From Anthoceros angustus (lineage: Eukaryota; Plantae; Anthocerotophyta), in NCBI GenBank assembly GCA_010909165.1, contig MU008188.1, positions 1 to 64,000 on the forward strand: a DNA stretch of 64,000 bases, read 5' to 3'. The position numbers were made by a program, and so were the translations under genes. This document shows, piece after piece, positions 15,301 through 64,000 of this stretch. Below the pieces are notes generated by a model. It did not search any database. It was not told the DNA's origin and saw nothing but the letters and a program-made list of their open reading frames with translations. How positions within the stretch are numbered: position 1 is the first letter of the stretch; every line of letters begins with the position of its first letter.

Positions 15301-15539
15301 CTAGAACATTATACACTTGTTCTTTCGAGCAGTTAGTACCATCTAACTACCGATATTGAACATGACGTTTTCGGCGATGAAGACATCATGACTCAAAAAT
15401 CGTCTGATTAAACACTCAACTCGCCTTGTTAGAAAAGTCAAAGAAAGCGGATCACGGTCGTGTATTTTGCCGTTGACTATTCCACGAGTAATCCGCGATC
15501 GGAATTTTACGCTCACCGGCGTTGGCACCCTCACACTTG

Positions 15540-16330
15540 CCCGTCGCTGCGTCACGCGGCGCACGCCCGCCGCGCGCACGGCCACCGCGGCGCCGCCTGG
15601 CCAACCGCGCCCACCGGCCACAGCCACGCCCGCGGCCGCACGCACCCGCCTGGCGCGGCGCGCGCCCTGCGCCCGGCGCGCCGCGCCGCCCACGCCGCTG
15701 CGCGCCGCGCCGCGGCGCGCGCGCGCGCGCGCCCAGCGCCACGCGCCCGCGCTGGCGCCGCGCGCCGCGGCCGCGCCCGCGCGCCCGCGCCGCGCGCCGC
15801 GCTGCGGCGCGCCGCGCTGGCGCCCGCGCCCCGCTGCGGGCTACCGCGCCCGCGCTGCGGGCGCCCAGCGCGCCTGCGCGCGCTGCGCCAGCGGCTGCGG
15901 CGCCACGCGCGCGCCCCGGCCGCGCGCTGCGCTGCGGGCGCCTGCGCGGCTGCGCGCCCCGCTGCGGCGCGCGCGCCCCGCTGCGCCCCGCGCGCGCCGC
16001 GGCGCCCCTGGCTGGCGCCTGCGCGCCGCGCGCCGCGCTGCGGCGCCACCGCGCTGCGGCCCGGCGCGCCAGCGCCTGCGCCCCGCGCGCGGCCTGGCGC
16101 CCGGCGCGCCCCGCTGCGCCGCGCCCGCGGCCCGCCGCCCGCTGGCGCGCGCGCCCGGCCCGCGCCGGCGCCCGCGCCGCGCGCGCGCGCGGCTGGCGCC
16201 CCGCGCTCGCCGCGGCTTTCGCGCCCCGCGCCGCGCTCGGCCCGCGCGCGCGCGCGGCCGCCTGCGCGCTCAGCGCCCGCGGCGGCCTGTCGCGGCCTCG
16301 CGCCCGGCCGCGCCGTCGCGGCCTTGCCTC
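15540..16330. repeat. Extreme GC low-complexity tract (almost only G and C)
   Basis: About 800 bp of cgcgc/gccgc permutations inside the Copia-2 gag region. Its Ala/Arg/Pro ORFs are compositional by-products. Confidence 0.85.
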
Positions 16331-40060: not shown

Positions 40061-43000
40061 TGTGGTAGGGAGAATCAGGGCACTCCAGGGTCCTCCCACT
40101 ATAGCGGCCACACTTATCCCTTGTCGCCGTGCGTTGGGTTTCGTCCCATGAGACTTGTGTGAAAGTTCGAGGGGCCTTGTGGTCACCAATCGCTGCACAC
40201 TCTCGCCTTCTCAACAAGCAAGGCTCTCCCTCTCACAGCGGTGCACACTTGCCTTGAAAATCGCCAACCCTTGACCCCTGGAACAGCTGCGGTCACCCTG
40301 AGAGCTATCACAGGCGCCCGAGACGTTCACACGATTTCGTCCCTACTTCTAAGACCAAACTTGACCTACGACACAACATTGCAGGTCACCTCGTGACAAG
40401 AGCCTACAGGCGCCAGGGACCCCTGGTTCACACCGCGATTTCGTCCCTACTTCTAAGACCTACTCTTCTCCACTCGGGAGGCGCTCGTTTACTTGCAGTT
40501 GGGATTCGTCCCTTAGGCTGCTGTGGCCTTCCACTAACACCTACACCTCTAATCCTCTACTCATCTTCTCATCTCCTCATCCTCTTCCTCCTAGTCTAAC
40601 CTCGATTCGGGCTTCTTGGTTTCGACTCGCCCTTACAGCTGGCGCACAGGGTCCGCCTCCACCAGCAAGTTCTTCCTTGGGCGGTTGCTATGAGTTTGAC
40701 ACAGGCGAGAACCTCCAGTCTTTCCTGTAGTCTACCCTCAAGCCGAGAGTTCTGGGCATTTGCCACACACCCAAAGCAAAGCAATTTCACAGCAACCATT
40801 CACAAGGGAGCAACTCGTTTAGGCACTTGCGGCGAGCAAGTCCTCCACCAAGCACTCACCACGCGACTTCCTCTCTACCGATGTGTTGGCTCACGGCACA
40901 CGAAATTCCTCTGTAATGGCAAAGGACTCGATGGCGTGGGCGCAAGACATGATACTTTACTTTGTGAAATCCTCCTCCTCTTATAGGAGGCCTTCCACAT
41001 ACAACCTCCCTTGGGTGACCCTCTGCAGTCACCTTTTCCAATATTCTATTCTACCGCCATTTAAGGCACTGGCATCTAAGTCTCGATCCTAGGTAAATTC
41101 TATTCTAGCAACTTCACCTATGGCCACTCTTTAATGTTGCCAACCTACACCACCTATCCTTCCCATTCCCCAAAGCTCATTTATGGTCATTGACAATTCT
41201 CGGTCCTTATCTTGCTGGGGTGGCAGGTTTCCCTCGTTGGTCTTCTCATCCCCTTTTCTTTGCTGGTCTTCCCTTTTTTGCTGGTCTTCCCGACCTCGAC
41301 TCCTCATGACTTTTGGGGCAAGTACCCCTTGACCTTTGCAAGTACCTTCCTTCTTCACCTTTCTGGGCGGCGCCCGATTCCTCTTGCCATCCCAATCGCC
41401 GCGCTTTCGAATGGCCCATCTTCTAGCCTCCCACGCGGCGCTCCTTCAAAGGGCACCCTACGCGGTAGTGCGGACTACCGTGGTAGGGTGACTACCTACC
41501 ATGGTAGTCTGGTCCCTATCTCCTTCCCTCTTCCTCATCGGTGATGGTCCACAGGGTTGAGATCCTTTTGCTCCTTCCTGTTGTTTGATTTGTCCATACC
41601 TATCATGGAGCATGTCTTCAAAGGTTCCTCCCCATTTCTTGACCGATGTTGTCACCTCGCTAATTCCTCCGGGCCTTCTTTGCGTTGGTCTCCTCTCGCC
41701 TGGCTCCTCCTTATCCGTGGGGTGAGGGAATTTCTTACCCTTCTCCCCTTCACGGGCCATACCCTTTGGTCTCCTCCGTGGCATTGCTCCTCAACCACCT
41801 TATCATCTATCTTAGGGGCATGTTCGGATCCCCCTTCCATCCTCAATCGGGCCTTGGTGGCTGGCTCCCCTCAGTCCTCGCCCGTGAGTGCCTTCTGTAG
41901 CAGACTACGCGTGAGTGGCACCTGTGATGGCGGACTACCGTGGTAGGGTGGTCACTCACCGTGGTAGGGTGACCCCTACCCTTCTGCGCCATCTCCTTCC
42001 TTTGGCCGAGGACTCATCCTCCTCTCCTTCACTTGTGGAACAAGTGACCTCCTTCTGCACTTATGTTGGTAGGTTGAGCTCCTCTTTGTGATTTTCATTC
42101 TCCTAGGGAGACAACCTCCTCCTTAACATCTCTCCAAAGTACTTGCCTCCCCTACCATCGCTCCCCTCAATAGCACTTGCATCCATTGCCTCCTTCGACC
42201 TCCACGGTAGGCTGCACCCTCTGTGAGGCTGCCTCCCTGGTAGGTGGGCTGCCTCCCCACCGTAGGTTGCCTTCTTCCCTCCTGTTTCCTTATGGCACTA
42301 TGGGCTCCTCTCGCCATTTCTTCTCCAAACTCCTCGGAGTCCATATCGCTTGTGACCTCATCAAAATCTAAGGCCCCGGCTTAATGCACGAGGGCCTCCC
42401 TATCATCATCGTGTGGCCCAAGCATCCTCCTCTTCACAATTATTGTAGGCCTCCACACACCATGCCATCGCCCAATATTTTTGGCAATGGGTTTACACTC
42501 CAAACTACCACCATGCGCTTCATGAGTTGGGGTTTCTTGGCCTTGAAACCCTTCACGGCATCCACACTGGCTTCCTCAAACAGCCTCATCCTTGCGCTTG
42601 GCTCTTAGCAATCCCATGAGGAGAACAAACACCAAGCTAAGCACCAAGAACACTAAGGACATCCCTCTCTTATAGAAATTCACTCTCAAAACCAAGGCAC
42701 ACCAAGACCCAAGAAATTGGTGCCACAAGAAAGAGAACACCAAGAGGAGATGGCGGCATCACTCTTAAGAAGGCACACACACAGGCGAGGCGCACACAAG
42801 CTCTAGCTCACTCCCTCTGCACTTTTAGGCGCTCAGTCTTCTCATCGACAATTATAGCAGAGCTCCTAAATTGCAGCCATAGATTTGAGTGGTTCTTTTG
42901 CAAGCATGTGGCCATATCCCATCCATTATTTAGCACAGCCAGCCATAACCTCTAATTTCTATCGTAGCCATCAATCCCCACCATGAATCTAAGGATCCTT

Positions 43001-45227
43001 TCCATCCATCTTGCACAAATTCAAGACCCTAGTTGGTTTGCACCAAGAAGGCTCTTAAGTCATCAATCCTTCAGCTCTTGTGCAAGAGCAACATTCCTGC
43101 ATCTCCTTGGCCCTAGGCGCTCCCATAGAGACCATCCTACCATCAAAACCCAAGGAAAAAGCTCAATCCTCAGCCTCCAAAATCTGCGTGCAGCAACTCC
43201 CTACTAAGAACTTTCCCAATCGCTCCCTTGTGTCTTTTGCAAATATAAGCTCATACTCCTCACACAAAAGGCACCCCATCCTGTCTTGATCCGCCCAAGG
43301 ACGCTTAACTCTAGTTCTTATATATATCCATATCCAACACACCAAGTTCCTTGTGCATATCTTGCCATACATTTTGGTGTTTCATTATTGAACTCCTCAC
43401 CAAGCTCCATTCTCCACATTTCTCCTTAGCGAACTCCTTGACCAACTCTCGAATCAGCCTACCTTGCTGCCCAATTCTCCTCGCGGACACCACGACCTCC
43501 CTTCACACCTACTTGCAGCCCAAGCTGCAATTTTGCCTTCATGATGCACACCCCATTGCGATTCCTTCACCATATTGCAGCCCATCGCAATACTACCTTC
43601 TGTGTGCCACCTCCATCTTCTTGCTGTAAATTCAGCTTATGGCCTCTCCTAGTTCGACACGGCCCTATCATGCCATCCTCACATCATTACTCCACCGCAA
43701 GTACTTCCACATGCTTCGCCGCCATGGCCTCCTCTTGCAAATGACTAGCATTGGTGCACCATAACTCAGCTCTCTTCTCTCTTCTTCATCCTTCGCCTTG
43801 TGGCCTTCACCCTGCTGCAACATGTGCTAGGCACTCTCCAATTCCCCTTCCTGCTGCCGTAGGCTGCCTACCTACCAACGTAGGCTGCCTACCTACCTGG
43901 TCTTTGGGTACCCAGGCTATAGTGGGTACCCCACTCACCCTTGTACGTGTTGTTCCTATCACGGTAGGGTGTGCACCTACCATGGTAGGCGTCTCCCTAT
44001 ACACCATTTGGCCCTATCCGGCCTGCATCTCTTGAGCTCCTCTCTGGGGCTCGCTCATGGAGGTTTCCTCCTCCTCCGGCAGCAACCCCTCGGGTTCTAC
44101 CTTCCTCCTCTTCCTTAAGTCCTCCAGCCTTGATCTTTTGCTGTGATGCTTGTCCTCCAGTGTCTTCTTCAACATAAAAGGCAATGGTCTTTCCATGCTT
44201 GGCACAGATGGACAATCTCGAATGGATGCCAAGAACCTTCCAGCTCCTTGCAATTTCCACACACACAGCCTTGACCTCGCCCTTGCTCACAATTCCCCTA
44301 GCTCTTATACCCTTGCTTTTCCCACGAGTTTCCAATTCTGTGATTTGAAGAAGGAATTCTCTAAGGTTCACGGATTCTTACATCTTCTCTAGCAAGTTGA
44401 GAGTCCCTTCTCCATAATTTCTCTTCAATTTTGACATGCCTTGCTCTTCCCAACACTCCTTTGGGCTTGGGCAAGCATTGCCTTCTTCCTTCCACCCGGC
44501 CCTTCCTTCCTTCTTCTTCTCTTGTTGCACCCTACTTGTCTTGCCTATTTTCCTCTTCTGCCTAGCTTGCGCCTCTTCTCTATCCTGCAGGCGCATCGCA
44601 ATCTTGTGTGGGGCTCTTCTGACTCTTGGTGTGGCCTTCTTCTGCGGTGTTGGCGCTTCCTCACCTTCAAGTTGTGACCTCCTACACACATGCGTGATTA
44701 TAAAGATAACTTGGGGTTAGGAATGGTAACTACCAATCTACTTCCCTTGGATATGCACCACGTGGCACCTTTCTCTGATTGATTGGAGTTTCCCAATTCC
44801 TCTTATACTAAGATACTATTTCCCCTAGTTTCCTAACGGCCCAATCTAGCTTTTAATTTCCTATTCGACCCATTTATCTAGTCCACTATTGGTGGGCATA
44901 TATAGTGGATATCTCCCTATCCTAATTTCCCTTTTGTCGAGATCTTACCTACCGGTAGTCGCCTTCCTCACCTACGAGTGTGGCACCCTCGGTAGTCGCG
45001 GACTACCGCCCTTTCGGACTGCCATTACGCCTTGCACGGGGTCGTTTTGACCCGTTCTTCTTCCCTCGGATATCCTCTTCGCCTTCCTAACAATATCCTA
45101 CAACTCCGGCCTTCAAGATTCTCGAAAATTTCGCATGCTCCTCTTCAATCGTTCCTAGCCAAAAAAAATCAAACTTGTTTGCCTCTTGGGCTCTTTTGGG
45201 CTGGTTGCCCAAACTTTATGCTCCACA
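40061..45227 (-). repeat. Gypsy-B 5' LTR (about 5.17 kb)
   Basis: Direct repeat of 31121-36274, with the PBS adjacent at 40043-40056. Confidence 0.88.
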
Positions 45228-46199: not shown

Positions 46200-48100
46200 G
46201 AATGGGCGGGTATGGTTTGCGTCCATACTTTGACCCGATATGACAAGTCACTGCCAGACACCACGCTTCTCCTCCTCGGTGCCCCACGGGCGGCCCGGCG
46301 CAGGAGGAGGCGGCCACCGACGGAGTTGGCGGCTCCACCGGCAGCCGATCAGCGACGATAATGGCAGATGCCCCGGCGGACTTATCGGGAACCGAAGATA
46401 AGGAAAACGCGCGCCGCTGCCAACGTAGCACCCCGCGCGTGCCCTTCCGCCAGCGGAGTGGCAAGGCGGAGGAGGCGGTCTGAGGGGCGGAAAGGCCCGC
46501 CCAGAGCGGAGGCCACTGCAGTGACCACACCTGCCCTTGTCCGACCGGGAGGCAACGGGCCTCCGGACCCTTCACCACCTCCGAGCCCCAAGGAGAAGGC
46601 GGAGAAGGAGTTAAGGCCAAGAGGGCTAAGGAAGGAGGCGGACTGAAAAGACTCAGACCTAAGAGGTCTGATTAGTCCCGAGAGCCCGATCGGACTCGCC
46701 CCGGACGTAGTATGGCGATCCTCGACGGGCCAAGAGATGCTGCGCCACTACGGACTTTCTAGGCATCTCCCTCACGCGGCCGTGGAAGAAACGCCGAGTT
46801 TTAGCCACTGTCATGGACGGTATGCTTTGGGGTCTCAGGAACAAATGGAGAAGACCCAAGAGAAGTGGAGGCCACCATGAGGATGGTGGAGCTTCAAGGG
46901 CGTGAGGCGGCCTGTGAGGCGGTAAGGCGTGAGTCCCTCCTGAATCGAGGAGGGAAAACGCGGAGGCGGAGCGAGAGGTCCGACGGTTCAGCAAGACCGG
47001 ACCAAGATCCTTCAGGCTGCGGTCACTGAAGCGCATGGAGGCCCAAGCATATCAAGACCTCTGAAACGGAGGCGTGGCGGAAGGAGGCAGGAGGGTCGAG
47101 GTGCGGAGAACGCAGCGACCGGCCGAGGCGGCTCAGACCTAACACCAAGCCGGCGAGGCTCGTGTGAAGGCGGCATGGAGGCGGAAGTCATGCAAGGTCG
47201 ATCGGATCACTACCGACGTGATCGAACCGTGGAGGGAGACTACGGGGTAGCCAAGCAACTTGAAAGGCCGAACAGTGTGGCATGAGCAAGCACGAGCCGT
47301 GAAGAAGAAATGGAGGCCAGCACCCGGGAAATAGGGGACCTGGTGCGGCAGGAAGCGGAGGAGCGGCGGCAGGAGCTGGAAGGCAGCAAGGACACCCTGG
47401 AGCTGCAACTCCAAGACGCGTCGGAGCAACACGGGATTCTCAACGGGAGAATCCAAGACTTCGAGCAGGAGATAGAGCGCCTCCAGCTTCGCTTGAAGAC
47501 GGAGGAGAATAGGCGGCGGTCCAAGGAGTTGGACGTCGCCAGGCTGAAGAAGGAGCTGGAGGAAGCCAGGAGTCGGGCGGAGATACCGGCCCGCCTGGAG
47601 AAGGAAGTGGCGGACTGCAAGGATGAACGAGGGACGAGCGGAGGAGGAGCAGAGGTCGCTCATTGCGGGAGGCAAAGGGGGAGCTCTGGCCCATGGCCAA
47701 AGAACCGGGTGGAGCTACAATGACGAAGGGAGGAGGAGCACGTTGAGCAGCAGCAAAGGCTGCAGGAGGTGTCGGAGGCCGCCTTGGCGGCATCAAGGGA
47801 GTCTGCCCGGCTATAGTTGGCAAGCCTGGCGACGGAGACGGGCCAGCAGGCCGGACAACACGCCCAGCTGCCGGAGCACCTCTGGAGGAGGGAGTACCGG
47901 GTGCTCCGGGCCCATGTGGAGGAGGCAATTCAACAAGTCGATTCCGACTTTGCCTACTACCACGCAGAGCTCCTCAAGGCTCTAGAGGTCTTGCCACCCT
48001 TAGGTGGGGTGACTTCCGTGACGGGCCAAGGAGGAGGAGGAAGGCCCGAGACAGCCACCTGGGACCTTAGGAGCGCCTGATTTGACGATGTGCAGCAGCA
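46200..48100 (+). pseudogene. Coiled-coil-rich ORF of unknown function in the 3' region of retroelement family D (copy 1), frameshifted
   Basis: Heptad-like ORF 47310..47723 and EEAIQQVDSDFAYYHAELLKALEVLP (47817..48080). A homolog lies at 49900-51350. Confidence 0.6.
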
Positions 48101-48272
48101 GGGGGAGTTGGAGGAGCAGGACGCAGGGGAAGGTCACGAGGTAAGCACCGCACCTTCGCATGGAAGGAAGGGAGGAGGGCCTGGGAGGCCGTGAAGTGGC
48201 ACATCCAGAAACCGAACCACGGAGGGCCTGGGTGAGCCTGATAAGCCCAGAGGGGCGAACCAGCTCGCGAGT

Positions 48273-48520
48273 CGGACTTTGTCCTGGACTGAAGAACGGC
48301 CGGACCCGAGGTCCGGCCTCAAGAAAGTCCGACCCGAGGTCCAGGACTTAGTGACGAGACCGGACCTCGCCTACGCCCGGGGAGAAGACCTGGACCCCAG
48401 GCGGTCCGGACTCGAGGTCCGGACCCGAAAGAAGACCGGACCCGAGGTCCGACTCGAGAGAAGACCGGACCTAGAGGTCCAAACTCCTGAGTCGAGATCT
48501 GGACCTCAAGTCCAGACTCA
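48273..48520. repeat. Short tandem array of the hairpin-capable GGACC-CGA-GGTCC motif; also at 51577-51700 and 63910-64000
   Basis: Repeated ggacccgaggtccggac units spaced about 25-35 bp apart, upstream of the PPT/LTR in all three family D copies. Confidence 0.8.
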
Positions 48521-48613
48521 GTGGCGGAGGAGCCACCAATCACCACTAGAACCATCTCGAGGGTTCATGAACCCGGGCCCGCCAATGAGATAAGAGAGAG
48601 GAGGGGAGGAGGA

Positions 48614-49432
48614 TTTAGTGGTGATCGCCCGTGCCGCCGCCCAGCCCGACAGAGCCCTGGGGATCACGCGATCCGGGTGCGCCCACTGTGGCTAGGCCTT
48701 GGGCCGCCAGCCGCCAAGGCGGAATCGGGGCAACCCACCCCACCACCGACTCGTAGATAGGTGGAATAGTAGGCGATTAGGGCGGCCGCCATCACCGCTA
48801 AAGGTGTAATAAAGACGACCTTGGCGTATAAGAGGGCCGAGGCTGCTCTAGTAAGTATCTTTCTCTTGGTGTTGATGCCGCGTCTTCTTGCCCTTGTGTG
48901 CCTTCTTGCTAGCGTGAGTCCCGAGTCAACGAAAGCGGGCCCGACAACTCGAGAGATCGATCAAGGTCCCGTGATGGACCCTAATGTGGTGGTGGTGTAG
49001 GAAAAGCAGGGACCCTTGCTGAGCAACACCGGGCCTGGACGGACGGAACCACAGGGAGCTGTGAGGAACGTGCAGAGCCCTGGGACGGAGAGGCTGGGCA
49101 GAGCGGAGGAGATCCCATCAGGCATGACCACCGCGATTTTCTCCAAGGATAATGAGTGAAGTGTGAATGGTGAGGAGGAACGGACCAGGAGAAAGTGACT
49201 TAAACTTGGACGATACGGACGAATAGGTCAAACGTTTGGCCACTGGCCTCGTCCGGTGAACGTTACGGTAGAAGTCAAAAGCGATGAATGTGTGTTGAGT
49301 CTCGAAGCGAGTACTACGTGAGTGAGAAACGATTGAAACGCGGGCCAACGGAGCCTATCATTCTCTGGGAGCGGACCTCGGCTACAACCGGGACGGCGCC
49401 TAGGGCCGTCACCGTGAAAGTCTCGCCACACA
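48614..49432 (+). repeat. Family D LTR copy 1
   Basis: Preceded by a polypurine tract (48592-48613), contains a TATAAGAG box (about 48827) and ends in CA. Homologous to 60791-61664 and to inverted 62921-63816. Confidence 0.75.
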
Positions 49433-49499
49433 CCTCAACCTCACAAGGAGGAGAAGAGGGGCGCTCAGGAATGGCCCCCTCACGGGAGGCAGAGCGGGG

Positions 49500-51400
49500 A
49501 GCAGCGAGGCGGAGGCCCGACCTCCTAAGGCCAAACGGCCCGGAGGAAGATGATTGGGAGGATCGACTCCATCGACCTGAACGGGACACCCCGCCGCCCA
49601 GAGGTATGGGAAGATATCCCTGCCTCCCTCCTTCCTGGTTCGGGGCCCGGAGGTGCCGCGCCCGGACAGGGACCCACTGGGGAGGAGCCTACCAGCGCCA
49701 GCAACCCGCCACACCCCCAAAGAACGGAGCCACGCCCTGACAAAGCGAGTCGTCAAGAGGCGGAAGGTGGCTCCTACCAACTAAGCGCCAAGGAGCGCAC
49801 CATTTCCTCGTCCTCTACCTACCTGCAAGGTGGGGAGGCGGAGGAAGCAGAAGGAGAGCGAGAGGACGCCCAAGGTGGGGGGCAGGGCGGCCCAAATTCG
49901 GAGCCGGCCTTCCGGCTGGGAGAGGGAAATTAGCTCCGGACCTCACCGCCACCGAGCCCAAAATGAAGGCGGGCGGAGAAGGAGTTAGCGGCCAAACGGG
50001 CCAAGGAGGTGGAAGGGCCGGATCAGGGGCACTGGGACCTGAGGGTCCCGACTGATCAGTCCGAGAGAGCCAAGTGGGACTCACCCGGACCTGTGATCCT
50101 TAACGAGATTCCCGCACCCACGACGGACTTCTTGGGTGCCTCACACCGTGGCCGTGGAAGAGACAGGCGGTCCCTGCAACCGCCATGGGCAGGATGCCTG
50201 GGGTCTCTGGGACGGCAGAGAAGACCAGGAGTGGAGGTAACCTTGAGGCGCATGGTGCTCCTGTGAGGAGGCGGCCCGGAGGCAGCTAAGAAGACCCTCG
50301 CAATCGAGGAGGAAAGCGTCGAGAAGTAGCGGAGGTCCGGGTCTATTCAGCAAGACCCGGACCAAGTCCTTCAGCGAACTGGTAGGCAGTGAGGCCCAAG
50401 CCCGGTGGCAGGACCTCTGCAGCTGGGAAGCGCGCAGGGGCAGTTGGAGGAAGCCCGAGGACAAAGCAGTGGCCGAGACCTGCCCATGGGGCCTACAGAA
50501 CAACACCAAGCCGGCTGTGTGAAGGCGGGCGCGGAGGCGGAGGCTGCAGCTAAACCGATCAGTGATCATTACAGGATCGAAACTGTGGAGGGAGAGCCAG
50601 GATAGCATGGCTAACTGGCATGAAAGGAGGCATGGAGCGAGAGCCACCGTCACGGAAGAGAGGCCAGCAACAAGGAGATGGAGGATCTGCCTCGATGCGT
50701 GGAGCGGAGGACGGCGCGGAGATGGAAGACCGCAAGAGACCTTGCGGCTCCAAGACACTGTCAGCGGGCGAGCTCTTGGGCGTGATCGGCGATCACGGCG
50801 GAGATAGAGCGACTCACTCTAGCTGGAGGGCGGAGGAGGTAAGGCGATGGAACAAGGAGCAGGCGTCGCCGTAATGGAGAAGAACACAGGCGAGGCAAGG
50901 AACCGGGCAGAGTTCTTGACCGGACCGGAGGGAGATGGCGGAGCTCGGGCCGAGATGAGCGGAGAGCAAGGGCCTTGGGCGAAAAAGAAGCTGCTAGTCC
51001 GAGTTGAGGAAGGCGGAGGGGGCCATGCGGGGAAGCCGGGCGGCTGAGGACGGGCCGGGGCGGAGCGGCACGGCGGCTGGTGGAAATTGAGGCCTCTCCT
51101 GCCTCGCAAGATCTGCCCGCCCCAGCGAAACCCGGCAGAGGGGCAGGCCAACAAGCTTCGGATAGCACGCCATTGCCGGGAGCACCTATAGAGAGATCGA
51201 GTGCTCGGCGCATGTGGAAGAGGCAATCCAGAAATCGACTCGATTTTGCCTACTACCACGGCTGGCTCCTCAAGGCATTGAAGCTTCTCAAACCCGCCAT
51301 AACCGGACGGACCTCGAAGGGTCGAAGGAGTGGAAGGAGAAGAAGGGCATGGGGACAAAGACTAGGGCCTTGGTGGCCTTGTCTTGAGTGCGCAGTGGAG
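49500..51400 (+). pseudogene. Family D coiled-coil ORF (copy 2), frameshifted
   Basis: DFAYYHGWLLKALKLLKP (ORF 51080..51589) and DNA similarity to 46540-48050. Confidence 0.55.
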
Positions 51401-51893
51401 AAGAGCCCGAGGAGGCGGATGCGGCCAAGCGTGAGCCTTGAGGTGTCAGCGCAGCCGGGGAGGATGGGCGAGGGCCTCGAAGGAGGAAGGAATAGCAGGA
51501 CCCAAGCCGGAGGAGGGGCAGTGGCGAGATGGGCCCCAACGGTGGGTGGTCATGTGGTGAGGTTGGGACTTGAGATCGGACCACAGTAATGGTCGGACCT
51601 GAGGTCCGAACTGCAGTAAGACGGGACCCGAGGTCCGGCTCGAAATAAGGCCGACCAAGATCGGACCGGGTCGAGCCCGGACCCGAGTCCGGACTTAGAG
51701 AGAGGAGTCACCCCAACTGCCGGGGAGGCGGTCAGAGGTGGCCCATGGGCGGGGATGTCGCGCCACGCGGCGCAGCGGACATGGCGCATGCCATCCTATC
51801 AAAATCCACAAAACAAAAAGTCTTTCAACTACTTGCTATCAACTCATAACCTTGGGCCACATGCGTCATCACCACCTCCGTCACGCGCTAAAA

Positions 51894-52417
51894 TGGCAAA
51901 ATTTACCGACTTGGGATGGTTGTCCTCAGACACCACACAAGCATCACAAGGTGCTCGAAAATGCTTGGGATCTGTCTGGCTGTTCTATTGAATCAGACAT
52001 CAACAATCCGCCCTCAATGACGGATTGCTGGACTTTGTAGCCTACACCGCCGCCGATCTTAATTACTGGCCCGAATTCCGAAGCGCCGTGATCACACCCG
52101 CACATGTCGGGAGATCTTCGCCGAGCCGTAATTGCGCTTGACCAGATTCTCGCTTGTATGGTCCACATAACCACGACACCATCCTATTTCCATACCCATG
52201 CCACTCATCATGCCACCACACACATAGCACACGCACACCATCACACTTTATTTCTTATCTACCTCTTTCTACCATCATACATGATACCGCGCCACGGCCG
52301 CAGATAGCGACATGGCAGATGCCATCCTATCAAAATCCACAAAACAAAAAGTCTTTCAACTACTTGCTATCAACTCATAACCTTCACATGCGTCATCACC
52401 ACCTCCTGCGTTTCACA
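51894..52417 (-). repeat. Complete Gypsy-E LTR (B+A, about 520 bp, TG...CA)
   Basis: Starts TGTGA after a G-rich tract (about 52425-52433) and ends ...TTTTGCCA. Its two halves recur at 51754-51885 and 60386-60758. Confidence 0.75.
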
Positions 52418-54114
52418 ATAAATGGCCCCCGCCAAAGTTGGCTCGTATGTCATGTTGAAAGCACCACTTTGGCACTCTCAAATGCCGTAGAATCGTCGGT
52501 AAAACCTTCGAACATGCCATCCCTTAGTTGTGGTTCCGACGGTTTATCGTGATCCATTCTCCCCGTAATAACGCGCCACACGCCGCTCTTCCGGATCGAA
52601 ATACTCATCAACTTGTGCTTTGCCCAACTGCCGTTCTTTCGCTCGATGCCGCCATGAGTTCTTCTTCTTCATCGCTATCTAGTCTTCACCTAGCCACCCA
52701 TTCAAACCATTTACATAATAATCTTTTTCGATACATGCCCCTCGATAATCACCCACATTGTCGTCGAAGATACCAAGATTCGAGTGGCTTCATCCCATTC
52801 CAACACTCGTAAGCAAGCAAACACCAGAAAGCTCGTGGGTACCGATAAAACGCCCTTTTCTGCAAGTGACTTAGCCAAACTTTCGACTTCGAGGTCGCTG
52901 GTTTTCCTTGTGCGTACATTAAGAACCCTTGGTGGGCGTTGATCAAACACCGATGCATGAACAGGTGATGTTCCGTTGAAAGGCCCCTTCACGAATCGGT
53001 CCACGAAGCTTTGCCTGCTCATGCCCCTTCCGCCACTCAAAAAGATCTCTATGATCATAAGGAAAACTCTCTATGTTGCAGCCCTCATGGTGTGATTCCA
53101 TATACAGCAAAATGCTTGCAACTCCGTAAATGTCTCGGTCGTTCGGGTTTACCAGGATACTTCCTTACCAAAGGTGTTTTCCACTTGTCTTCCCATGGCC
53201 TCGTCTGAAATTGCGGAACACTTGTGCTCATTCTCCTAAGCATGATTTGCAAGTGTGGTCCGCTTCCATATCCATGTCAACCACCGTGTTGTCCCCAACG
53301 AGAACCCTCTTTGATGCTCTCGAATTTGGAAAACGGGTGTTGTTAGTGTTGGTCAAACAACCATATGAACTGTTGATTCTCGAAGACTACCTATGTTGCA
53401 ATCGGCCTTGCAAAGCGAGTGTCTTGCTTGTTAGTCAACACAAGTCGCCCGATTGCAACGATCGAATGTCACTTGGTCTTACCTGTGTCCCGCCATCGTC
53501 ACTTGCCGCCTACATACAAACATGCCATGCACCTCTCGCTCGTGCTCACATCCGGATACTTGATGCCATGACCACCTTCGCGCTTGTTCTTCACCCCAAT
53601 TCTTCTGATCACCGCCTTCACTTTTGTCACTTGAGCTATCCCTATCTACACCCGCAACTACATGCCTTAACACTGACCGCCGTGTGCTGCCACCGATGTT
53701 CCATCGTCATCGCCTTTCCTTCACCGCAACAACTCGTTGATGTCCCGGATCAGCCGCCTTCCTTGCTTCTCGCACCCACACGGTCACCACAATTAGCTTT
53801 CTCCCACATGCACCGTGATGACCTGCTTCACCTTCTCGCACCGCTACCGCATCGATGCACTCACACTGTATTTCTGCCTTGTCGCCTTCCAATGGATCAA
53901 TCCTCCGCCCTATTGAATCCTCCTTCGTGCCCGCCAATCCTCCGTCCACACCTTTACTTCCTTGCGCCGCCAACCCCAGACGCCTCACACACAACCCGCA
54001 TATCGATAAGGCAAGTAACGGGTTTTATAGACCTTCCCTTTAGTGACTCTCTTCCGCACGCCCACACCGTGAGTGCGCTTTACCCGCCCCGCTTCTTTCC
54101 GCCCTAACTTTTCC

Positions 54115-54250
54115 GTGCATTTGTGACAAAACCATTCTCCTTCCGGATCGCTTTCAGCGGTCGAAGACAAAAGACATGATGTCCTTGGTTGCCGGTCACA
54201 CAAGCATTAGTTCGGTCGTTGATTTGACCAGTGTTCGCACGGCAGATCAA
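54115..54250 (-). pseudogene. PHD finger downstream of integrase
   Basis: Across frames: LICR...MCD...NQGHHVFCLRPL...PEGEWFCHKC (ORFs 54104..54349 and 53985..54203), the C4HC3 PHD pattern. Confidence 0.8.
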
Positions 54251-54449
54251 CAGTGGCTTCCATGCTTGTGGTTGTATGCGTATCAAGATTCGGCAAGTGG
54301 CAGGCGATGTCGCATGTGCTCCTTGCATCGCCCCATCTTGCCCTTCCAACTCGATGACCCTTGCTCACCAACGCTCACCACTCTCAAAATCAACCGTCCG
54401 TGTTTACGCCCAAGTGCCGGAAGGATGTTGAAGATACACGAAATCACCC

Positions 54450-55300
54450 ACGAACTTTCGCCTTTGGCTTCCATGATCCTCCTCGTGTGAATGCATACCT
54501 CAATTGATCTCCGGCGTGCGATGGCGATTGTCCATCGCCATGGGTATCACTCGTTGTAACAACTTGGGTTTCTAACTCGAGCAACACTCATCCACATCTT
54601 GTGTCCATCCATCGGTTTGGAATATGTGCCGCCACTATGTTGGGCAGCACAAAGATTCGCCAAACATGATGTAGGTAAGTTGCCTGGTGACACCGATCCC
54701 AGAGCCTGTGGCAACGTGGTAGCAACTCATCCCAACAATTAGGCTCGATTCCGTGCAAGTGCGAAGTGAATCCTTGAAAGTTTGCACCTTTCGCTAAACC
54801 ATCTCGAGGATGATCCGTGACGTGCGTCGTGATCTATCAAACTCCGATCCAACAACGCTTGGAACTCTCCTCAATTCGCTGATCTCGTCACACCTCGCAC
54901 GCTTCCATATCTGCTCAAAACGCACTGTAAGAAAGCTCGTGCTGTGAATTGGGAAGTTCTGACTGGAAGGAATGCCAATTCCATCCACTTGGAGAAGTGT
55001 TCTATCATGAGCATACAATGCTTGTTGCCTTGCTTGGTCAATGGTAGCTCTGGCATGAGGTCAACGGACCATCGAAAGAACAGACCCCGAATAGGCAGCG
55101 AATGCAACACCACATCCTGGCTGTTGAACCTTGCTTTGACTGCATCACAAGCAGCACATCTCGACACCACTCCGCCGTGAGTACATTCCGGACCAAAAAT
55201 AGGCACTCTTCACATATGATGCGTCCTTTTACAAGTGCCCAAGTGTCTTGTGCACTTTACTCACTATCTGCTCCTTTCCTCTATGGGAGGGACCATTTTA
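54450..55300 (-). pseudogene. Gypsy-E DDE integrase
   Basis: Zn-binding CAAC and core LFFRWSVDL...LMIEHFSKWME (ORF 54871..55206). DQ and HP...DGLA motifs read across frames at about 54790-54890. Confidence 0.88.
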
Positions 55301-55549
55301 CACACCACGATCATCACTAACAATTTGCCATCCCTCTGTATACCTCATGACCTTCCGTCGAGCTTTTGAACGGGCTGCATCTAGTCCAACTACTTGTCCT
55401 TCCTTCAATAGTGAATAGCATGCCCATATTCCATATGTCTCGCCCCCCTCATTGAGTTGTTTTCTTCCTTCGACTTGTGGCCATGAGAGCCATATACATG
55501 CTTGGCATGTAACGAGCATGATCAAAATCGCCGCAGTCCCATCTTTGTC

Positions 55550-56750
55550 ATCAAGTCGGGTTCTGCTAAGTCCATCCGCATTGTGATGTACTTTGCCTGC
55601 CCGGTGCACTATGTGCATATCATATTCTGACAGCAGCAACGCCCACCTTGCGAGCTTGCCACTCAACTTCATGTTCGTCATTAACCAGTGCAACGGCTGG
55701 TGATCGGTCACGAGTTGGAAGCTCCTGCCGAACAAATAAATTCTGAAATGTAGAACTGCCCACACCGCAGCCAAACATTCACCCTCATACGACGAATAAT
55801 TGGCTTCCGCGAATTGTTCGACCTACTCGCATACGCAATCACTCTTTCTTTTCCTTCCTGATCCACCTGTGCAAGTACAGCTCCGATTCCAGTTGCACTC
55901 CAGTCGGTATACAGAGTGAACGGTTTTTCAAAATCAGGCCGTTTGAGCATGGGCCTTTCTGACAATTGATCCTTTAACTCCTGCCAAGCATGTTCATGTT
56001 TCTGCTCCCATCCATGTGCCCCTTTTCATCGATCATACAATACCTTGCAAGTCTGCTCATGTTCGATGAATCGGCGATAATAGCGAGTCCCAAGAATGCT
56101 CTCAACGCTACGTCCCTTGGTCTTGGCATAAGATTGAACCGCACCTTCGCGGCGACGCCTCGGCACAATCTTGTGGCCCAAGTATTCTATCTCCTTGTAA
56201 GCAAACTTACTCACTTCTTGGATGTCTCTGCAGCAACGCTTGGTGTCTGAATGTGTTCCTCTCATAAACACCAAAATGTCATCAATGTAACACCTCACGA
56301 ATGGTAATCCTTGCAACTCCAAGTCTCGCCACCCTCCGAAAGTAGATGGCGTTTTTTCAGCCCAAAAGGCATCGTCTCCCATTCCCACAATTTCTTTTTG
56401 CCCCGTTTTTTACACTTGTCTTCTTCGATGACAATTTGATTGAATCGAACTAAAGTCCAACGTCAGAAATACTTGGCTTCAATCGCGTCAAAGATTTCAT
56501 CCGGGGTAGGCATGGGATATCGCTCCATAGGCGTTACCTCATTCCCGATAATCTCCACACATCCGCTTTGTCCTTCCATTCGCTGCCTTTTCTTTAGCGG
56601 AAGGACCGTGGCACAGATATCGTGAACTTGATTTCCGAATTAATCCGCAAGTTCCCTACACCGTTTATCCACAATGTCCCACTGGCTCAACTTGCCGGAA
56701 AACCGCTCATTGGTAGTAGTGATGATTTTGAACTTGATGCGCTCATAACG
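55550..56750 (-). pseudogene. Gypsy-E reverse transcriptase and RNase H
   Basis: DRYPMPTPDEIFD (about 56490-56525), FVRCYIDDILVF (YIDD at 56278-56289), RPDFEKPFTLYTDWS...VIAYASRS (55708..55965) and FQLVTDHQPL...RWALLLSEYD...NADGLSR (55298..55774). Confidence 0.93.
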
Positions 56751-57019
56751 GCTCTTGCCTTGCCACCGAAGGTACCCGATTCTTCTCCAAAGATCTCCGG
56801 ATCCCGCATTGATCCTTATTCAAGTCCTCACATATTTGCCATACATGAGTTGAATGCCCACTCGTGCTTTCCACTCACGATACTTCTCCGCACTATTCGC
56901 GACATTTGGGTACTTGTCACTGACCGTAAGCTCTTCCCGTCACCCATCATCATACCCGACCTTCTGTATCTCGACTTGCATTCACCGTGTGGCTATTCCC
57001 ACACTCACCAACCATTGAA

Positions 57020-57830
57020 CACAGTCGTCAAATGCTTGTCCCGGTTTGCATCCGAAAGCTTGACACACCTCGCGTAGGTGCTGCCATCAAAACCCATCGC
57101 TGCTCCCGCTCTACAATCGTGGGTTCCCCATCTCCTCACCATTCATGTTCAATACCATGCCCGCACCACCGGCGAAAGGCATATGGTGAGCCGTCTTGAC
57201 GATGTGCCAAGCTCCGGTTCTCCCACAATATTGACAGGATAGTGTGGCAACCTATCCATCCTGCTCACTGCGATCGCTGCCTCCTCAAGGATCCCATCCA
57301 GTTCCGCTTAGTTGGTGTGGTTAAACTGATCGCTGAGTGTTTCCACACTGCAATGTCGCTGCAGACGATGAGCATACGACCGCTTTGCACCGTCAATGAT
57401 GAACTCCTCGCCCGCCTCGACCTTTTCATAATTTTCTCTCACATGACCCTTGTCAAAGCTCCGCAAACATTCTCCAGCAAGTACCAACATGCCGGATTGC
57501 ATCGCTGCACTTCTCTCGTATCTTCCGCCCGACTGCTGTTGCCTTGACCACGTCCCTTGGAAAAGGTCTTGCACTCCCATCCGCAATCAGTCAACCGGGC
57601 ATCTCATTGCATGCGTGCTTTTCCCACCAGCATCACATCGGCTTTCTGGCACCCTCTTATGGCTTCCACACTCGCAAGCTCGGATGCATTTTTGTAGCGA
57701 TAATCCCGGATTTGGCCAACGCCCGAGTCTTCTCATCAATTTCTACACGTATACTTCCGCACAATCCCACATCGCAGACACACTCCCACTACTAATCCCC
57801 GAACACAACTCCATGAGATGGATGCCTGTT
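57020..57830 (-). pseudogene. C5-cytosine DNA methyltransferase domain inside the Gypsy polyprotein (frameshifted in this sequence)
   Basis: Motifs in canonical order across frames: I GIHLMELCSGISSG (57785-57826), II VRKYT.EID (about 57735-57760), IV WEC then QDL (about 57560-57579), VI YLLENV (57466-57483), VIII D...SYAHRL (57362-57395), IX ERE.AMGF (about 57089-57113), X GQAFD (57027-57041). Confidence 0.85.
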
Positions 57831-58199
57831 CATGCACTCGCCACCGAATCACTTGGTTATCGATCGATTTCCCAGATTTCCTATGATCGTCAGTGGCGTG
57901 CTTCTTCCAGACAATTGTGTGATTCGCCATATTTGCATCCGCCGCCGAACACGCTCTCTTTCCAAAGCCTTCACGGGTGGGTACTCACGCGCACATCATT
58001 CGATGTCGTGCTTTCTTCGACACCTCGTGTCGTGCAGTCTTGTGTCTCTTCCCACACCTCCCTCGGTGAACACTCCGGCACGCCGTGAACGCCAAAGATA
58101 CTTCTTGATCTTTCACCATGCCTCCTCATGTCCGGAGGAATTCGCGACATGTGTGAAATCTCCATCCCGCCACTTTGGCCTATAAACGCCACAGGTGCG

Positions 58200-58480
58200 G
58201 GATCCACCCCATTGTCGCCCGCGTATCCGCACCCAATAACACATCATAGTTTCGCATCAAAACCAAACAATGTACTTCCACCACACACGCATCTGCTGTT
58301 CTCGGCTTATACTCTATCCGAATCGGATCGCGAGTCATCCCCATCACTGCTCTTTGGTGCTGATGTGGTGATCCGTACCTCACCGGCACTTGTCTCCATA
58401 CGCGGTGCTTCTTGCACCGTCCCCAAGCAACACCGGATCGGCACGGTGTCTACTAACACACACTCCGGCAAAAGCCATTG
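58200..58480 (-). pseudogene. Gypsy-E aspartic protease
   Basis: SVLVDT(G)A at about 58440-58465 (1-nt indel) and NYDVLLG at about 58230-58250. Confidence 0.7.
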
Positions 58481-58899
58481 ACGGTGACTTCTCGTCGCGA
58501 TTCTTCACTAACGCTATTCCACCTTTCCCTAGCCGGCTTTAGGTGATCACCACGTGGTGACAAGCCGGACACCATGTTCAACTCGGGCTTCCTTCTTAAT
58601 CCATGCCCGCATTGCTTGCTTGAACGGTTGTGTCCGGATCCCTGTGTCCCGCAAACTTACCAGGTACATCCATGGCTTTTTCCAATGAATCTAGCAGGGA
58701 ACAACCTCATCGATGTGTGACGTCCCTCCCCGGATCTCGAATGACTTGGGCATTCTCAATCGATTCCTATCCCCATCGGCCTTCACTTTTACACCCTTGC
58801 CGAAATCAATGCTTCCCACTTTGGTCCGCCTTGACCTTTCCGTCATCAACGCAAACACATCTTCGTCCGTCATAGGTTTCTCGCCGACATGAGTCCTTG

Positions 58900-60330
58900 T
58901 TTATGCTCACGCTCATAGCCACCGCTCTGCCGCTGACCTCACTAAGCGGCTAGTGTAGCTCGCACCCGTTCGCTTGTCCATTGCTCGGTCTCCTAGGCCC
59001 TTGGGTTTGAGTTCAGGGATGGGCTTGCTGCCCGTATGTCCGGTTTTACCACATGCCCGCACGCCTCTTTCTCCTTTGACCCACCAACACGATGCTCACA
59101 TTCATACGCCTTGTGCGGCCCCTTGCACCGCAAACACTTTACGGATGTCTTGAAGCTTACGCCATGAGCCACTTTGATCCTTTGATGGCGGCTCTGCTGA
59201 GCGTTCACCGCACATGCTCGCGATAATGTGACTTCCTGTGCTGCTCAATGTTCAAGTTGGTGTGACCTCGATCACATTGTGCTCCTCCCGAAGCATTGGT
59301 GACAGATCTCCTTCATAACTCTTTCGGCCATCTCGACGCTGCTCCAACTCATAATCGCCCATGTAGCATATGCAGTTGGCGATCACCCTCCTCTGTCTCG
59401 GCGGAATGTATATTTGCGCTCTCCTCATGGTCTTCACCTTGGTGTCTTTCACCACCCTCAACCGTAGATATGCGGATCTTAGAGGCTCATTCGGCTTGAT
59501 CACAAACTTTGACAACTCTTGGATTTTCTCAATGGAAGATCCGGAACATCTCACCAAACTTGACGAACATCTCGTCCACCAAATAAGTGATGACCTCGAT
59601 TGCGATGAACCCGATGATCCCGGGTTCTTCATCATCGACCTTGAGCCTTTCCTTGCCCGCTTCATTCGCGACATGTGTGTGCATCCTGCGATCTTTCTTT
59701 GCGATCACGATAGCGTGTTAAAGCTTCACCGGCTAGAAACGCGTGCTCATCTTTCCGAGTGCCATCTCGGTGTGAACTCGGACTTGTATTTGAGCACCAT
59801 CTCATCAATCGCCCATCCGAACTTCTCTTCAAAGTCGCAAGAGACATACTACCGTGTCTACCTGTGAACACATCATTTTCCGGGCCTGGTTCATAATCCA
59901 TCCCGGCGCCACCACGATTTTCTTCAAAGTCAATGGATCCTAGGAGTGTGACTCCACTCAAATCGACCACTTGTCCTACGGACCGAAGGAAGTGCCCCGG
60001 ATTGTAAGCTCCGGTGTGCTCATTCCACCCCGACCGTAACAACACCATCACTATCAATCCCTCCCCTGCGAGAGACTATGTAAGGCATTAGTCAAAGTTG
60101 GTGTCCTTCCTTCCCCCGCCAACCATGCCGCTTGTCAATCACCTCACTCAGACGTTGCAAAATCTGCCGGCTCCACCAGATCGGCCCACTCTGAATGGAT
60201 CTCACGCATAAAACAATAATCCAAGGTGTTTTCTCGATCTACCACTATGGACTTATACGTGTCGTTCAGGCTTGGGGTCACCGATTGACTTCCTCTTCTC
60301 CGTCTTCCGCTCGAATCTCGGGCCCCTCTC
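58900..60330 (-). pseudogene. Gypsy-E gag region
   Basis: Zinc knuckle CLRCKGPHKAYEC and EPLRSAYLRL capsid-like segment (59252..59674), upstream of the protease. Confidence 0.6.
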
Positions 60331-60790
60331 GGACCCTTGAGTCGCGTTGCTACCTTGTGTGGCTTCACCAAAGATGGATTGTTGATGTGCAAAAATTCAT
60401 CGACTTGGGATGGTTGTCCTCGCACACATGACCAAGCATCACAAGGTGCTCAAAATGCTTGGGATCCGTCTGCTGTTCTATTGAATCGACATCAACAATC
60501 CGCCTCAATGACGGATTGGCCTTTGTAGCCTACACCGCCGATCTTACCATCTGGCCCGACCAAGGCCGTGATCACACCCGCACATGTCGGGAGATCTTCG
60601 CCACGAGCCGTAATTGCGCTTGACCCGCTTGTATGGTCCACATAACCCACGACACCATCCTATTTCCATACCCATGCCACTCATCATGCCACCACACACA
60701 TAGCTTTCGCGCACATCACACTCAGTTCTTATCTACCTCTTTCTGCTGCGTGCCATGACAGGGACCCACTCGAAGACCAGGAGAGGAGGA

Positions 60791-61664
60791 TGTGGTGGTG
60801 ACCGCGGTTTGTCAGAGCCGCGGTAGCCAACGACAAGGTCTCGGGAAGGAAGGTCCGCCTGATCATCCGATTGGGTGCGCCATGGCCTCGAGGCGGGGGT
60901 GGGGTCATCGGGCGGCGGAACCAAGGCATCCCAGGCCCACCGCCACCATGCGGGAGATAGGTGGAGAGGGAGTAAGATGGTGGCGGTGATTACACTGCGC
61001 CACCGACTCGAATAGGAGGTAATAAAGGCACCTTAGGCGTAGTATAAGAGGGCGAAGTTGCTCTAGTAAAGTATGTTTCTCTTGGTGTGGATACCGCATT
61101 TTCTTGCGAGACCACTTGTCGTCTTCTCGCTAACGTGAGTCTGAGTCGCGGCGAGGCACAGCGGCTGGGAGGCGATCCGAGTCACAGTGACGGACCCTAG
61201 CGTGTGGTGGTGTGCGAGGGCGAATGATGAGACCCTTGCTCGTCGGGCGGCGAGACCAAGCGTTGGACGGGGCCGGGCGTGTGAGCGGAGGAACTACAGG
61301 GCGTGTAGAGCCCAAACGAAGAGGCCCGGCGGAACGATGGAGGAGGTCCGGACCACGCAGCCCACCCGCCTTTTCCCCCAAGAACAATGAGTGTAGTGAG
61401 AGTGGTGAGAGGAACGGACTAGAAGAACAAGTGGCGGACTGGATTGATACAGACGCGAACGAGTCCTTAAACGTTTGGCGACGCCGAGCCTGTTCGGTGG
61501 ACGTTACGAGTAGTTAGTCATAAAACGATAAACGTGTGTGTCTAAGTCTGAAACGGTCACGGCGTTGAGGTGTGATTGAAGCGTAGCGTGGAGCCTATCA
61601 TTCTCTTGGGCGGACTCCGACTACGACCGCGGGATTGTGTGTGCTGGCCGTCGAGAATCACACA
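60791..61664 (+). repeat. Family D LTR copy 2
   Basis: PPT ggagaggagga, then TGTGGTGG...CACA with a TATAAGAG box at about 61043. Homologous to 48614-49432. Confidence 0.8.
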
Positions 61665-62920: not shown

Positions 62921-63816
62921 TGTGGCGCGACCGAGGACCAGGCGCACAATCCCGTGTGGTTGTAGCAAAGGGTCCGTTCCCGAGAGAATGATAGGCTCCG
63001 TTTGGCACGTTTTCAACCGATTCTCACCTCAACGTAGTGACCATTCGGACTCAAGCGCGCGCGTCCGCAGTTTTACGAATAACTACTCTCACGTTCACCA
63101 AACAGGCCCGGTGTGGCCAAATGTTTAAGGACTCGTTCGCGTCCGTATCCTATCAATTCGTTCCTTGTTCGTCTAATCCGTTCTCCTCGCCTCTCTCTCT
63201 ACACTCACCATTCTTTGGAAAAGAGTGGGTGGGCTGCGGGTCGGATCTCTTAAAATGCGTTATCTTGGTCTCCGTCCGGGCTCTACACGCCTCCGGAGTT
63301 CCTTGACTCGCCATCGTCGTTCCCACCGTCGGTCCTTTGCCTGGAAGGCGAGGTCTTTGATCGCCCACCCACGCACACACCACCACACGTTAGGGCCCGT
63401 CACGGGACCTTGATCAATCGCTCCGGTCATGCACGCCTCGATGACTCGGGACTCACGTTGCAAAAGACGACAAGGGTCTACAAGGAAAGCAGCGGTATCC
63501 ACCCCAAGAAAAAGATGCTTTACTAGAGCAGCCGCCCCTCTTATACTACATCGAGCGGCTTTATTACACTCCTATTACATTTTGTTGCCCCATTCGATTA
63601 ATATAATCGACCGCCTACTACCTCCCCCTCTTCCGCCTATCTCCTTCGCCTGCGGCGGCTGAGGAGTGCTCTTGGTTCTGCCTTGGCACTGGTGGCCCAA
63701 TCCTCGGCCACGGCAGTTCAGGCACCTAATCGGATGATCCGGCGGCGGCCCTTCCCTTCGAGACACAGCCGAGGTTCGGCTCACGGTGGCGGTTTGACAA
63801 CGCGGTAACCACCACA
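62921..63816 (-). repeat. Family D LTR copy 3 (inverted)
   Basis: Reverse complement is homologous to 60791-61664. PPT at 63817-63827 and gag directly downstream. Confidence 0.8.
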
Positions 63817-64000
63817 TCCTCCTCTCCACTGCCCCCAGTGGGTCCACCGCCTGGGACCACCAGGAGTGTTGCTCACTTTGCAAGTCGGTGGTAGTCCCCT
63901 CACCTCCCGAGTCCGGGACCGGGTCCACTGGGCACTGGGGTCCGATCCTCGGGGTTGGCCTTATTTGAGTCCGGACCTGTGGTCCGTCTGAGGTTCGGAC

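Follow-up and report, generated by a model that had tools for sequence, protein, structure and literature searches.

Why a retrotransposon should carry a DNA methyltransferase (DNMT) is an open question, and the only Gypsy enzyme tried so far was negative in yeast. We address it here for a 64,000-nucleotide stretch of the Anthoceros angustus genome (contig MU008188.1, positions 1 to 64,000; this whole stretch is called the window below), in which an earlier note, made from the letters alone, had placed a cytosine-5 methyltransferase (C5-MTase) inside a Gypsy element and had cited a precedent from Gypsy elements of Klebsormidium. That precedent exists: de Mendoza et al. (2018, PMC5890265) described it as KnitGypsy-Dnmt3 in Klebsormidium nitens. 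Judged by sequence comparison, the segment in the window is a C5-MTase domain, DNMT3-like by the nearest matches of its relatives, and the element that holds it belongs to the family of this known kind. Intact copies, we consider, probably methylate their own new DNA in the particle before integration.

A fragmented DNMT3-like domain between protease and reverse transcriptase

Motifs are numbered, and the catalytic residues assigned their roles, as is general for C5-methyltransferases. The domain and its parts are as follows.

56994..57829, minus strand: DNMT3-like C5 cytosine methyltransferase domain, motifs I-X, fragmented (frameshift-aware alignment, family hidden Markov model, motifs)
57811-57785, minus strand: motif I, ELCSGISSG (sequence reading)
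57749-57735, minus strand: motif II, RVEID (sequence reading)
57582-57571, minus strand: motif IV, GWEC, followed in the next frame by QDL at 57571-57563 (sequence reading)
57573-57571, minus strand: catalytic Cys codon, EC context (in motif IV)
57480-57466, minus strand: motif VI, LLENV (sequence reading)
57379-57362, minus strand: motif VIII, SYAHRL (sequence reading)
57126-57103, minus strand: motif IX, EPTIVERE, with AMGF at 57100-57089 (sequence reading)
57041-57027, minus strand: motif X, GQAFD (sequence reading)

All seven motifs that had been read in this segment were located on the minus strand, the sense strand of the element, in canonical and unrearranged order from 57811 down to 57027, with the frame changing along the way. 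Some nine frameshifts and two stops break the domain and, as had been proposed, hide it from a list of open reading frames (ORFs): no single frame with stops read as X matches the Pfam methyltransferase profile PF00145 (0/3 frames), and a word-indexed search using one X-read frame returned no match. The ordered set of seven loose motif patterns, which were drawn up after the sequence had been seen, occurred in 0 of 1000 shuffles.

Frameshift-aware local alignment of the segment to 13 relatives gave scores above all 100 of their own shuffles in 11 cases, the exceptions being P0029 and P0077; the best of the 13, P0068, scored 159 (shuffles: mean 33.6, maximum 48), and the plus-strand control scored 34-46. 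A further relative, P0188, reached 172 against 200 shuffles with a mean of 36.4 and a maximum of 51. A frameshift-aware search of the kind that the earlier note had recommended finds the domain, and its profile check divides: a family hidden Markov model (HMM) gives 91.4 bits on the X-broken reading versus 4.3 for the best of 50 identically read shuffles, the guide sequence for that reading (P0068) being itself among the HMM's sequences, whereas PF00145 fails in the single frames. Identity to the nearest relatives of the window domain is only about 35%. Mapping of the full-length relatives P0095, P0074 and P0077 onto the window confirms that the domain sits between the protease (about 58520-58190) and the reverse transcriptase (RT, from about 56690).

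The same slot is occupied in intact relatives

Pfam recognized RNase H and no DNMT when the window was read in single frames, and the search for intact relatives therefore began from the RNase H frame, a query that contains nothing of the methyltransferase. Among its 64 matches, P0004 and P0029 have PF00145 ahead of the RT, and P0015 starts within such a domain. A full scan with the P0068 domain then gave 2195 clusters at E<=0.001, 218 of them reaching E<=1e-30, and the best 150 were taken for further analysis; 130 of these 150, with near-complete domains, were aligned together with 13 earlier proteins and 9 loci, making 152 relatives. PF00145 is passed by 13 of the 13 proteins examined, and a single ORF runs through protease, DNMT, RT, RNase H and integrase in P0074, P0077, P0095 and P0273. 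The segment is therefore shared by intact relatives in the same slot and is not a one-off capture. Named members of the family come from Klebsormidium nitens, Closterium and Hariotina and, for the RT-RNase H part only, from Coleochaete and Calypogeia; a viral collection yielded one distant locus, L001. The K. nitens protein GAQ93235.1, with a CCHC knuckle, protease and DNMT, groups with P0188, so that the best pairwise match of the window lies in the K. nitens clade.

The catalytic residues are almost invariant across the 152 relatives: Glu and the first Arg occur in all 152, Cys and the second Arg in 151 each. Directly ahead of the catalytic Cys stands Glu in 78 and Pro in 64. The EC context, which the earlier note had pointed out as departing from PC, is indeed present at the catalytic Cys of the window; since Glu precedes Cys in so many relatives, it is a family trait and no peculiarity of this copy. 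A Cys in motif I is likewise common to 21 of the 152. The domain is shown to be under purifying selection in the relatives: in the three measurable pairs of intact or near-intact loci, the DNMT ratio of nonsynonymous to synonymous substitution (dN/dS) is about 0.12, 0.11 and 0.17, two further pairs being saturated. For the EC-type relative P0143, the predicted fold (pLDDT 90) has DNMT3A/B as its best structural match (E 3e-17, TM 0.83 by target), and the first match of P0188 by sequence is DNMT3A; these nearest-structure assignments are those of the two relatives, not of the window copy.

Two slots for one domain

In a second group of elements, the DNMT lies between RNase H and integrase. In the DNMT tree (153 rows) and in the RT-RNase H tree (104 rows) alike, these elements fall into one clade that is free of protease-side members: the clade has 112 members in the first tree, 87 of them such elements (support 0.956), and 50 in the second, 47 of them such elements (support 0.952). 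The chlorophyte Hariotina belongs to this sister clade, and the window stands outside it, weakly placed. The RT and DNMT trees, built without a DNMT outgroup or topology test, agree on the slot split, a pattern that would fit one acquisition followed by one move. The two phylogenies that the earlier note had called for recover the same division; the window itself is placed in the DNMT tree with a support of only 0.38. EC and PC types alternate across the DNMT tree.

One protein, P0266, falls outside this scheme. It is a Gypsy polyprotein of 2531 aa with a weak Dam match (E 0.009) and a related DNMT ahead of the protease, followed by RT, RNase H, integrase and SH3; its label in the tree, 'PRside', is accordingly inexact. 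It resembles a two-methylase element, yet its DNMT is of the Gypsy-DNMT3 family and its RT lies outside the main clade.

A probable leaky stop behind the methyltransferase

Inspection of metagenome loci showed that 47 have a DNMT and then an RT. In 32 of these, the linker between the two stays in one frame, and all 32 such linkers contain a stop; in 31 the stop, UAG or UAA, has CAR-YY behind it (4 fully UAG-CAR-YYA, 27 off at the last base). About 25 of these come from one family, leaving some three independent families. UAG-CAR-YYA is a readthrough motif, and UGA-CGG is the type II motif (PMC3542737). The conserved in-frame stop after the DNMT is probably leaky in many relatives. It is not universal, as the linker is open in six proteins; the one open polyprotein for which the earlier note had proposed a test is found in these six and not in the 32 in-frame metagenome linkers.

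The window has a candidate at the corresponding place.

56937..56942, minus strand: UGA-CGG stop, candidate leaky stop between Gag-protease-DNMT and RT-RNase H-integrase (projection of the relatives' stop)

The relatives' stop projects to this site (first codon after it: 56921-56942). The linker frame of the window contains three UGA, a second of which, at 56984, lies in the same frame 42 bases upstream, and there is no 3' stem-loop behind the UGA-CGG (z -0.12); because of the upstream UGA and the lack of a stem-loop, we take the UGA-CGG of the window as a hint of a leaky stop.

What the enzyme may do

We think it probable that intact copies of this family use the domain on their own new DNA in the particle, ahead of integration, with the element's complementary DNA (cDNA) as the presumed substrate. 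The DNMT would be translated together with Gag and protease and released by the protease; with a leaky stop behind it, the enzyme would be made at the level of Gag, and RT, RNase H and integrase would be rare. Such a stop, if real, would supply many enzyme copies per particle, which favours new cDNA as the target, and it predicts both Gag-level enzyme in particles and methylated cDNA. A methylated new copy would arrive resembling host DNA, or already damped. With at least 218 clusters in the family, many intact EC- and PC-type domains are at hand for assay.

Several observations weigh against this reading. The single-frame Pfam search is negative as given above. The X-broken reading of the window has Cys, Glu and the first Arg, and its second Arg, in motif VIII, is a Gln beside a break. 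The window copy is a long branch in the DNMT tree, with the low support already stated, and its integrase is damaged. Finally, the Klebsormidium domain produced no methylation in yeast; human DNMT3B failed there too, and the result was called inconclusive (PMC5890265).

The enzyme might instead act after integration or in trans, guided by the PHD finger of the integrase to the insertion site or to other copies, and so limit the element itself or silence competitors. A PHD finger does follow the integrase in most full-length relatives, and in the sister clade the DNMT stands directly ahead of the integrase, a position that would tether the enzyme to the integration complex. On the protease side, by contrast, the stop parts the DNMT from RT, integrase and PHD finger and would leave most DNMT molecules untethered, and we regard action after integration as unlikely. 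We are still more doubtful that the domain serves instead as a binding module or an RNA methylase, with the change from Pro to Glu before the Cys marking altered or lost chemistry. The EC context of 78 of the 152 relatives, the negative yeast result, and the RNA methylation that has been raised for a DNMT borne by a LINE element (PMC5890265) would suit such a role; the near-invariance of all four catalytic residues, the alternation of EC and PC across the tree, and the predicted fold with its match to DNMT3A/B weigh against it. A one-off captured fragment of a host DNMT, or a chance string of motifs, in an ordinary Gypsy copy, as the missing single-frame Pfam match and the lack of a second copy within the window might suggest, is very hard to maintain and largely refuted by the significant full-length match to retrotransposon DNMTs and by the same-slot relatives (P0004, P0029 and partly P0015, 3/64) that the DNMT-blind RNase H query retrieved.

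Integrase-type ends on split direct repeats

The whole element has the following parts, given from its 5' end.

51756..60760, minus strand: whole Gypsy-DNMT element, 9005 bp, TG...CA ends, imperfect terminal inverted repeat (self-comparison, flank alignment)
60761..60764, no strand: target-site duplication GGGA, 4 bp, right copy (flank comparison)
60392..60760, minus strand: split direct repeat A1, 5' end, starts TGTCATG (87% to A2)
59098..59136, minus strand: Gag CCHC zinc knuckle (sequence; weak match to P0095 308-363; no Pfam match)
58190..58520, minus strand: aspartic protease, broken (frameshift-aware scores 63-78 to the protease parts of P0074, P0077 and P0095, no shuffle control)
55930..56690, minus strand: reverse transcriptase, broken, YIDD at 56289-56278 (relatives' mapping, sequence)
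55640..55929, minus strand: RNase H (Pfam PF17917 E 6.6e-20, PF17919 E 3.1e-21)
54450..55300, minus strand: DDE integrase and zinc-binding domain, broken (Pfam rve E 0.001, below cut-off; tblastn to P0004 and P0029)
54117..54290, minus strand: PHD finger, degenerate (P0095 and P0077 alignments reach 54117; WFCHKC at 54134-54117; no PHD Pfam match)
52434..54110, no strand: 1.7-kb 3' region, no recombinase found (Pfam, motif search)
52426..52433, minus strand: G-rich tract directly ahead of B1, polypurine-tract-like (G tract at the same place in relatives)
52283..52406, minus strand: split direct repeat B1 (88% to B2)
51898..52282, minus strand: split direct repeat A2; B1/A2 junction degenerate in the window (self-comparison)
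51756..51879, minus strand: split direct repeat B2, 3' end, ends CGCGACA (self-comparison)
51752..51755, no strand: target-site duplication GGGA, 4 bp, left copy (flank comparison)

Mapping of P0095, P0074 and P0077 on the window gives the order Gag knuckle, protease, DNMT, RT, RNase H, integrase and PHD finger. Self-comparison reveals repeats laid out as A1...B1-A2-B2, the split direct repeats of DIRS-type elements, so that a Gypsy order with an intronless Dnmt3-like domain in the coding region is combined here with a DIRS-type repeat design and no canonical layout of two long terminal repeats (LTRs). With GGGA counted once, the joined flanks align unbroken to a copy of the related repeat near 63650-64000; the duplication of 4 bp and the TG...CA ends fit the canonical definition of LTR Gypsy elements (TG...CA, 4-6 bp; PMC6317226). 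No tRNA-type primer site, led by TGG, was seen by eye behind A1 in the window or in relatives.

Of 94 metagenome loci, 80 were kept, and one family among them is built as in the window. The 5' end TGTCATG stands at 17 of 19 A1 starts (three pairs being the same site), CAYGACA forms the 3' end, and B1 has a G tract ahead of it. Duplications of 4 bp flank three of the four distinct complete related insertions, and the fourth has one mismatch. At the internal junction, the 3' end is joined to the 5' end through two bases in a palindromic CA-NN-TG (GACA-NN-TGTC). This strict pattern, defined on one family and with only L002/L004, L047 and L063 as independent cases, occurs in 7 of 22 regions downstream of the PHD finger, versus a shuffle mean of 0.4 and maximum of 3; a looser pattern is uninformative (16/22; shuffles mean 8.2, maximum 14). 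No fixed differences separate A1 from A2.

These features suggest a route in which, as in DIRS elements, the ends are likely rebuilt from the internal B1/A2 junction, with the DDE integrase then likely linking them to host DNA; by analogy with foamy-virus integrase (PMC1180852), a staggered cut after each CA may produce the processed ends. For the ends alone, insertion by a tyrosine recombinase, encoded in another frame or supplied in trans, would be the counterpart known from DIRS, and the repeat layout is that of the PAT/Ngaro recombinase elements (PMC4157794). We think this highly unlikely, given the TG...CA ends and 4-bp duplications of the window and its relatives; nor was a tyrosine recombinase found by Pfam or by motif search in six frames of the window element and the long ORFs of 8 loci (one short motif only), a search made less sensitive by the broken 3' region.

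A simple circle with two equal junctions was also considered: it predicts permuted insertions, and none of the 19 A1 starts is preceded by B, leaving that form unsupported. Separately, L009, L014, L047 and L068 end at a G tract and B without A2-B2, and may be B-by-B recombinants, the analogue of solo LTRs, or permuted insertions; their 5' ends are unreadable. In L051 (9030-9909) and L052 (1-1648), an 824-bp unit behind a G tract has a GTCA-GC-TGAC palindrome, suggesting the split-repeat design in the integrase-side clade too.

Taken together with the trees and the stop, a broader picture can be offered tentatively, as a possibility that we hold below even odds: KnitGypsy-Dnmt3 may be one tip of an old, green-lineage-wide Gypsy clade that has no tRNA primer, rebuilds its ends from an internal palindromic CA-NN-TG junction and inserts by a DDE integrase, and whose DNMT, acquired once, would have moved between two slots and would in many families stand on the Gag side of a leaky stop, loading every particle. 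The combination of split repeats and integrase ends suggests a hybrid route of replication, which LTR-finding software would miss where it requires two LTRs.

Some further features of the element were noted. The 3' region contains a stop-free antisense frame of 325 codons (53130-54104, plus strand) with no Pfam match. The element (51756-60760) lacks CpG depletion, with an observed/expected ratio of 0.98, while the remainder of the window has 0.71. Hariotina P0115 has a Tudor-like domain behind its PHD finger (E 0.0004, below cut-off); Tudor readings of the window were rejected both for the YDDG linker (score 32, shuffle maximum 35) and for the 3' region (score 28, shuffle maximum 42).

State of the copy and the rest of the window

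Across 17 repeat pairs in the window, gap openings (458) are about as frequent as mismatches (483), 22 gaps and 15 substitutions separate A1 from A2 of the element, and in 6 of 8 listed pieces most differences between the window and contigs of run X1 are gaps. Since gaps are as frequent as substitutions in these comparisons, the assembly appears to be indel-rich; some of the many breaks of the window copy probably reflect errors in the assembled sequence, which suggests that the copy may be less decayed than its reading. A run search listed X1 as the only DNA run (share 0.08) and no RNA run. Contigs of X1 cover parts of gag, protease, RT and integrase and leave 56920-58280 uncovered; the gap is uninformative either way, as no contig spans it and there are further holes elsewhere.

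The element is inserted within one of three diverged copies (62-69%) of another repeat, at 46438-51712, 60761-61653 and 62932-64000, whose gag-like open frames have no Pfam match. Elsewhere in the window lie a Copia-type RT fragment (3596-4126; Pfam RVT_2 E 6e-51), 850 bases of low complexity with 89% G+C and hardly any A (15500-16350; possibly an assembly artefact), and a 5.2-kb repeat pair among CCT-rich arrays (31121-36266 and 40061-45217; 89%, with as many gap openings as mismatches).

Comparison with known systems

Several known elements share single features with the one described here. Gypsy-7a_cRei of Chlamydomonas, compared by description only, is a green-algal Gypsy element with a PHD finger in Gag-Pol, but has ordinary LTRs and no methyltransferase (bioRxiv 10.1101/2022.06.16.496473). 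The PAT/Ngaro elements have the same A1-B1-A2-B2 layout (PMC4157794) and use a tyrosine recombinase, whereas the window element has a DDE integrase together with TG...CA ends and a duplication of 4 bp. Foamy-virus integrase cuts a palindromic LTR-LTR junction to give processed ends (PMC1180852), an analogy only: the junction there is that of 2-LTR circles, whereas the element here carries it permanently within its own sequence.

Among methyltransferase-bearing elements, the EpiLTRs of Cymbomonas and Euglena are Ty3/Gypsy-like LTR elements with a DNMT, but that DNMT is sister to DNMT4 and is accompanied by a Dam domain and a chromodomain; the same source names a streptophyte Gypsy-DNMT3 and keeps it apart from the EpiLTRs (bioRxiv 10.64898/2026.05.21.726589). 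SymbioDIRS-Dnmt3, for which an independent acquisition is reported, carries a Dnmt3-like domain in a split-repeat retrotransposon, and de novo CG methylation in yeast has been shown for it alone (PMC5890265); it is a DIRS element, in contrast to the Gypsy RT and DDE integrase of the window.

KnitGypsy-Dnmt3 stands closest. It has an intronless Dnmt3-like domain in a Gypsy gag-pol region with split repeats (Fig. 4c legend, PMC5890265), and the K. nitens protein GAQ93235.1, of the same family as the window, has its DNMT behind the protease; it differs in having PC where the window has EC, and the window has only the remote identity to its nearest relatives given above. The accessible text of PMC5890265 does not mention a target duplication, terminal TG...CA, a junction palindrome, a stop after the DNMT or a chlorophyte sister clade, some of which Fig. 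4c or the main supplement may show, and in the open-access literature we found no account of integrase-type ends with a palindromic junction, the leaky stop, the second domain slot, the agreement of RT and DNMT trees, or the EC motif. The window element is thus a further member of the already described KnitGypsy-Dnmt3 kind, and its added interest lies in how its relatives are built: DIRS-type repeats with integrase ends, a stop that is probably leaky in many of them, EC as a frequent motif, and another slot in which the domain can stand.
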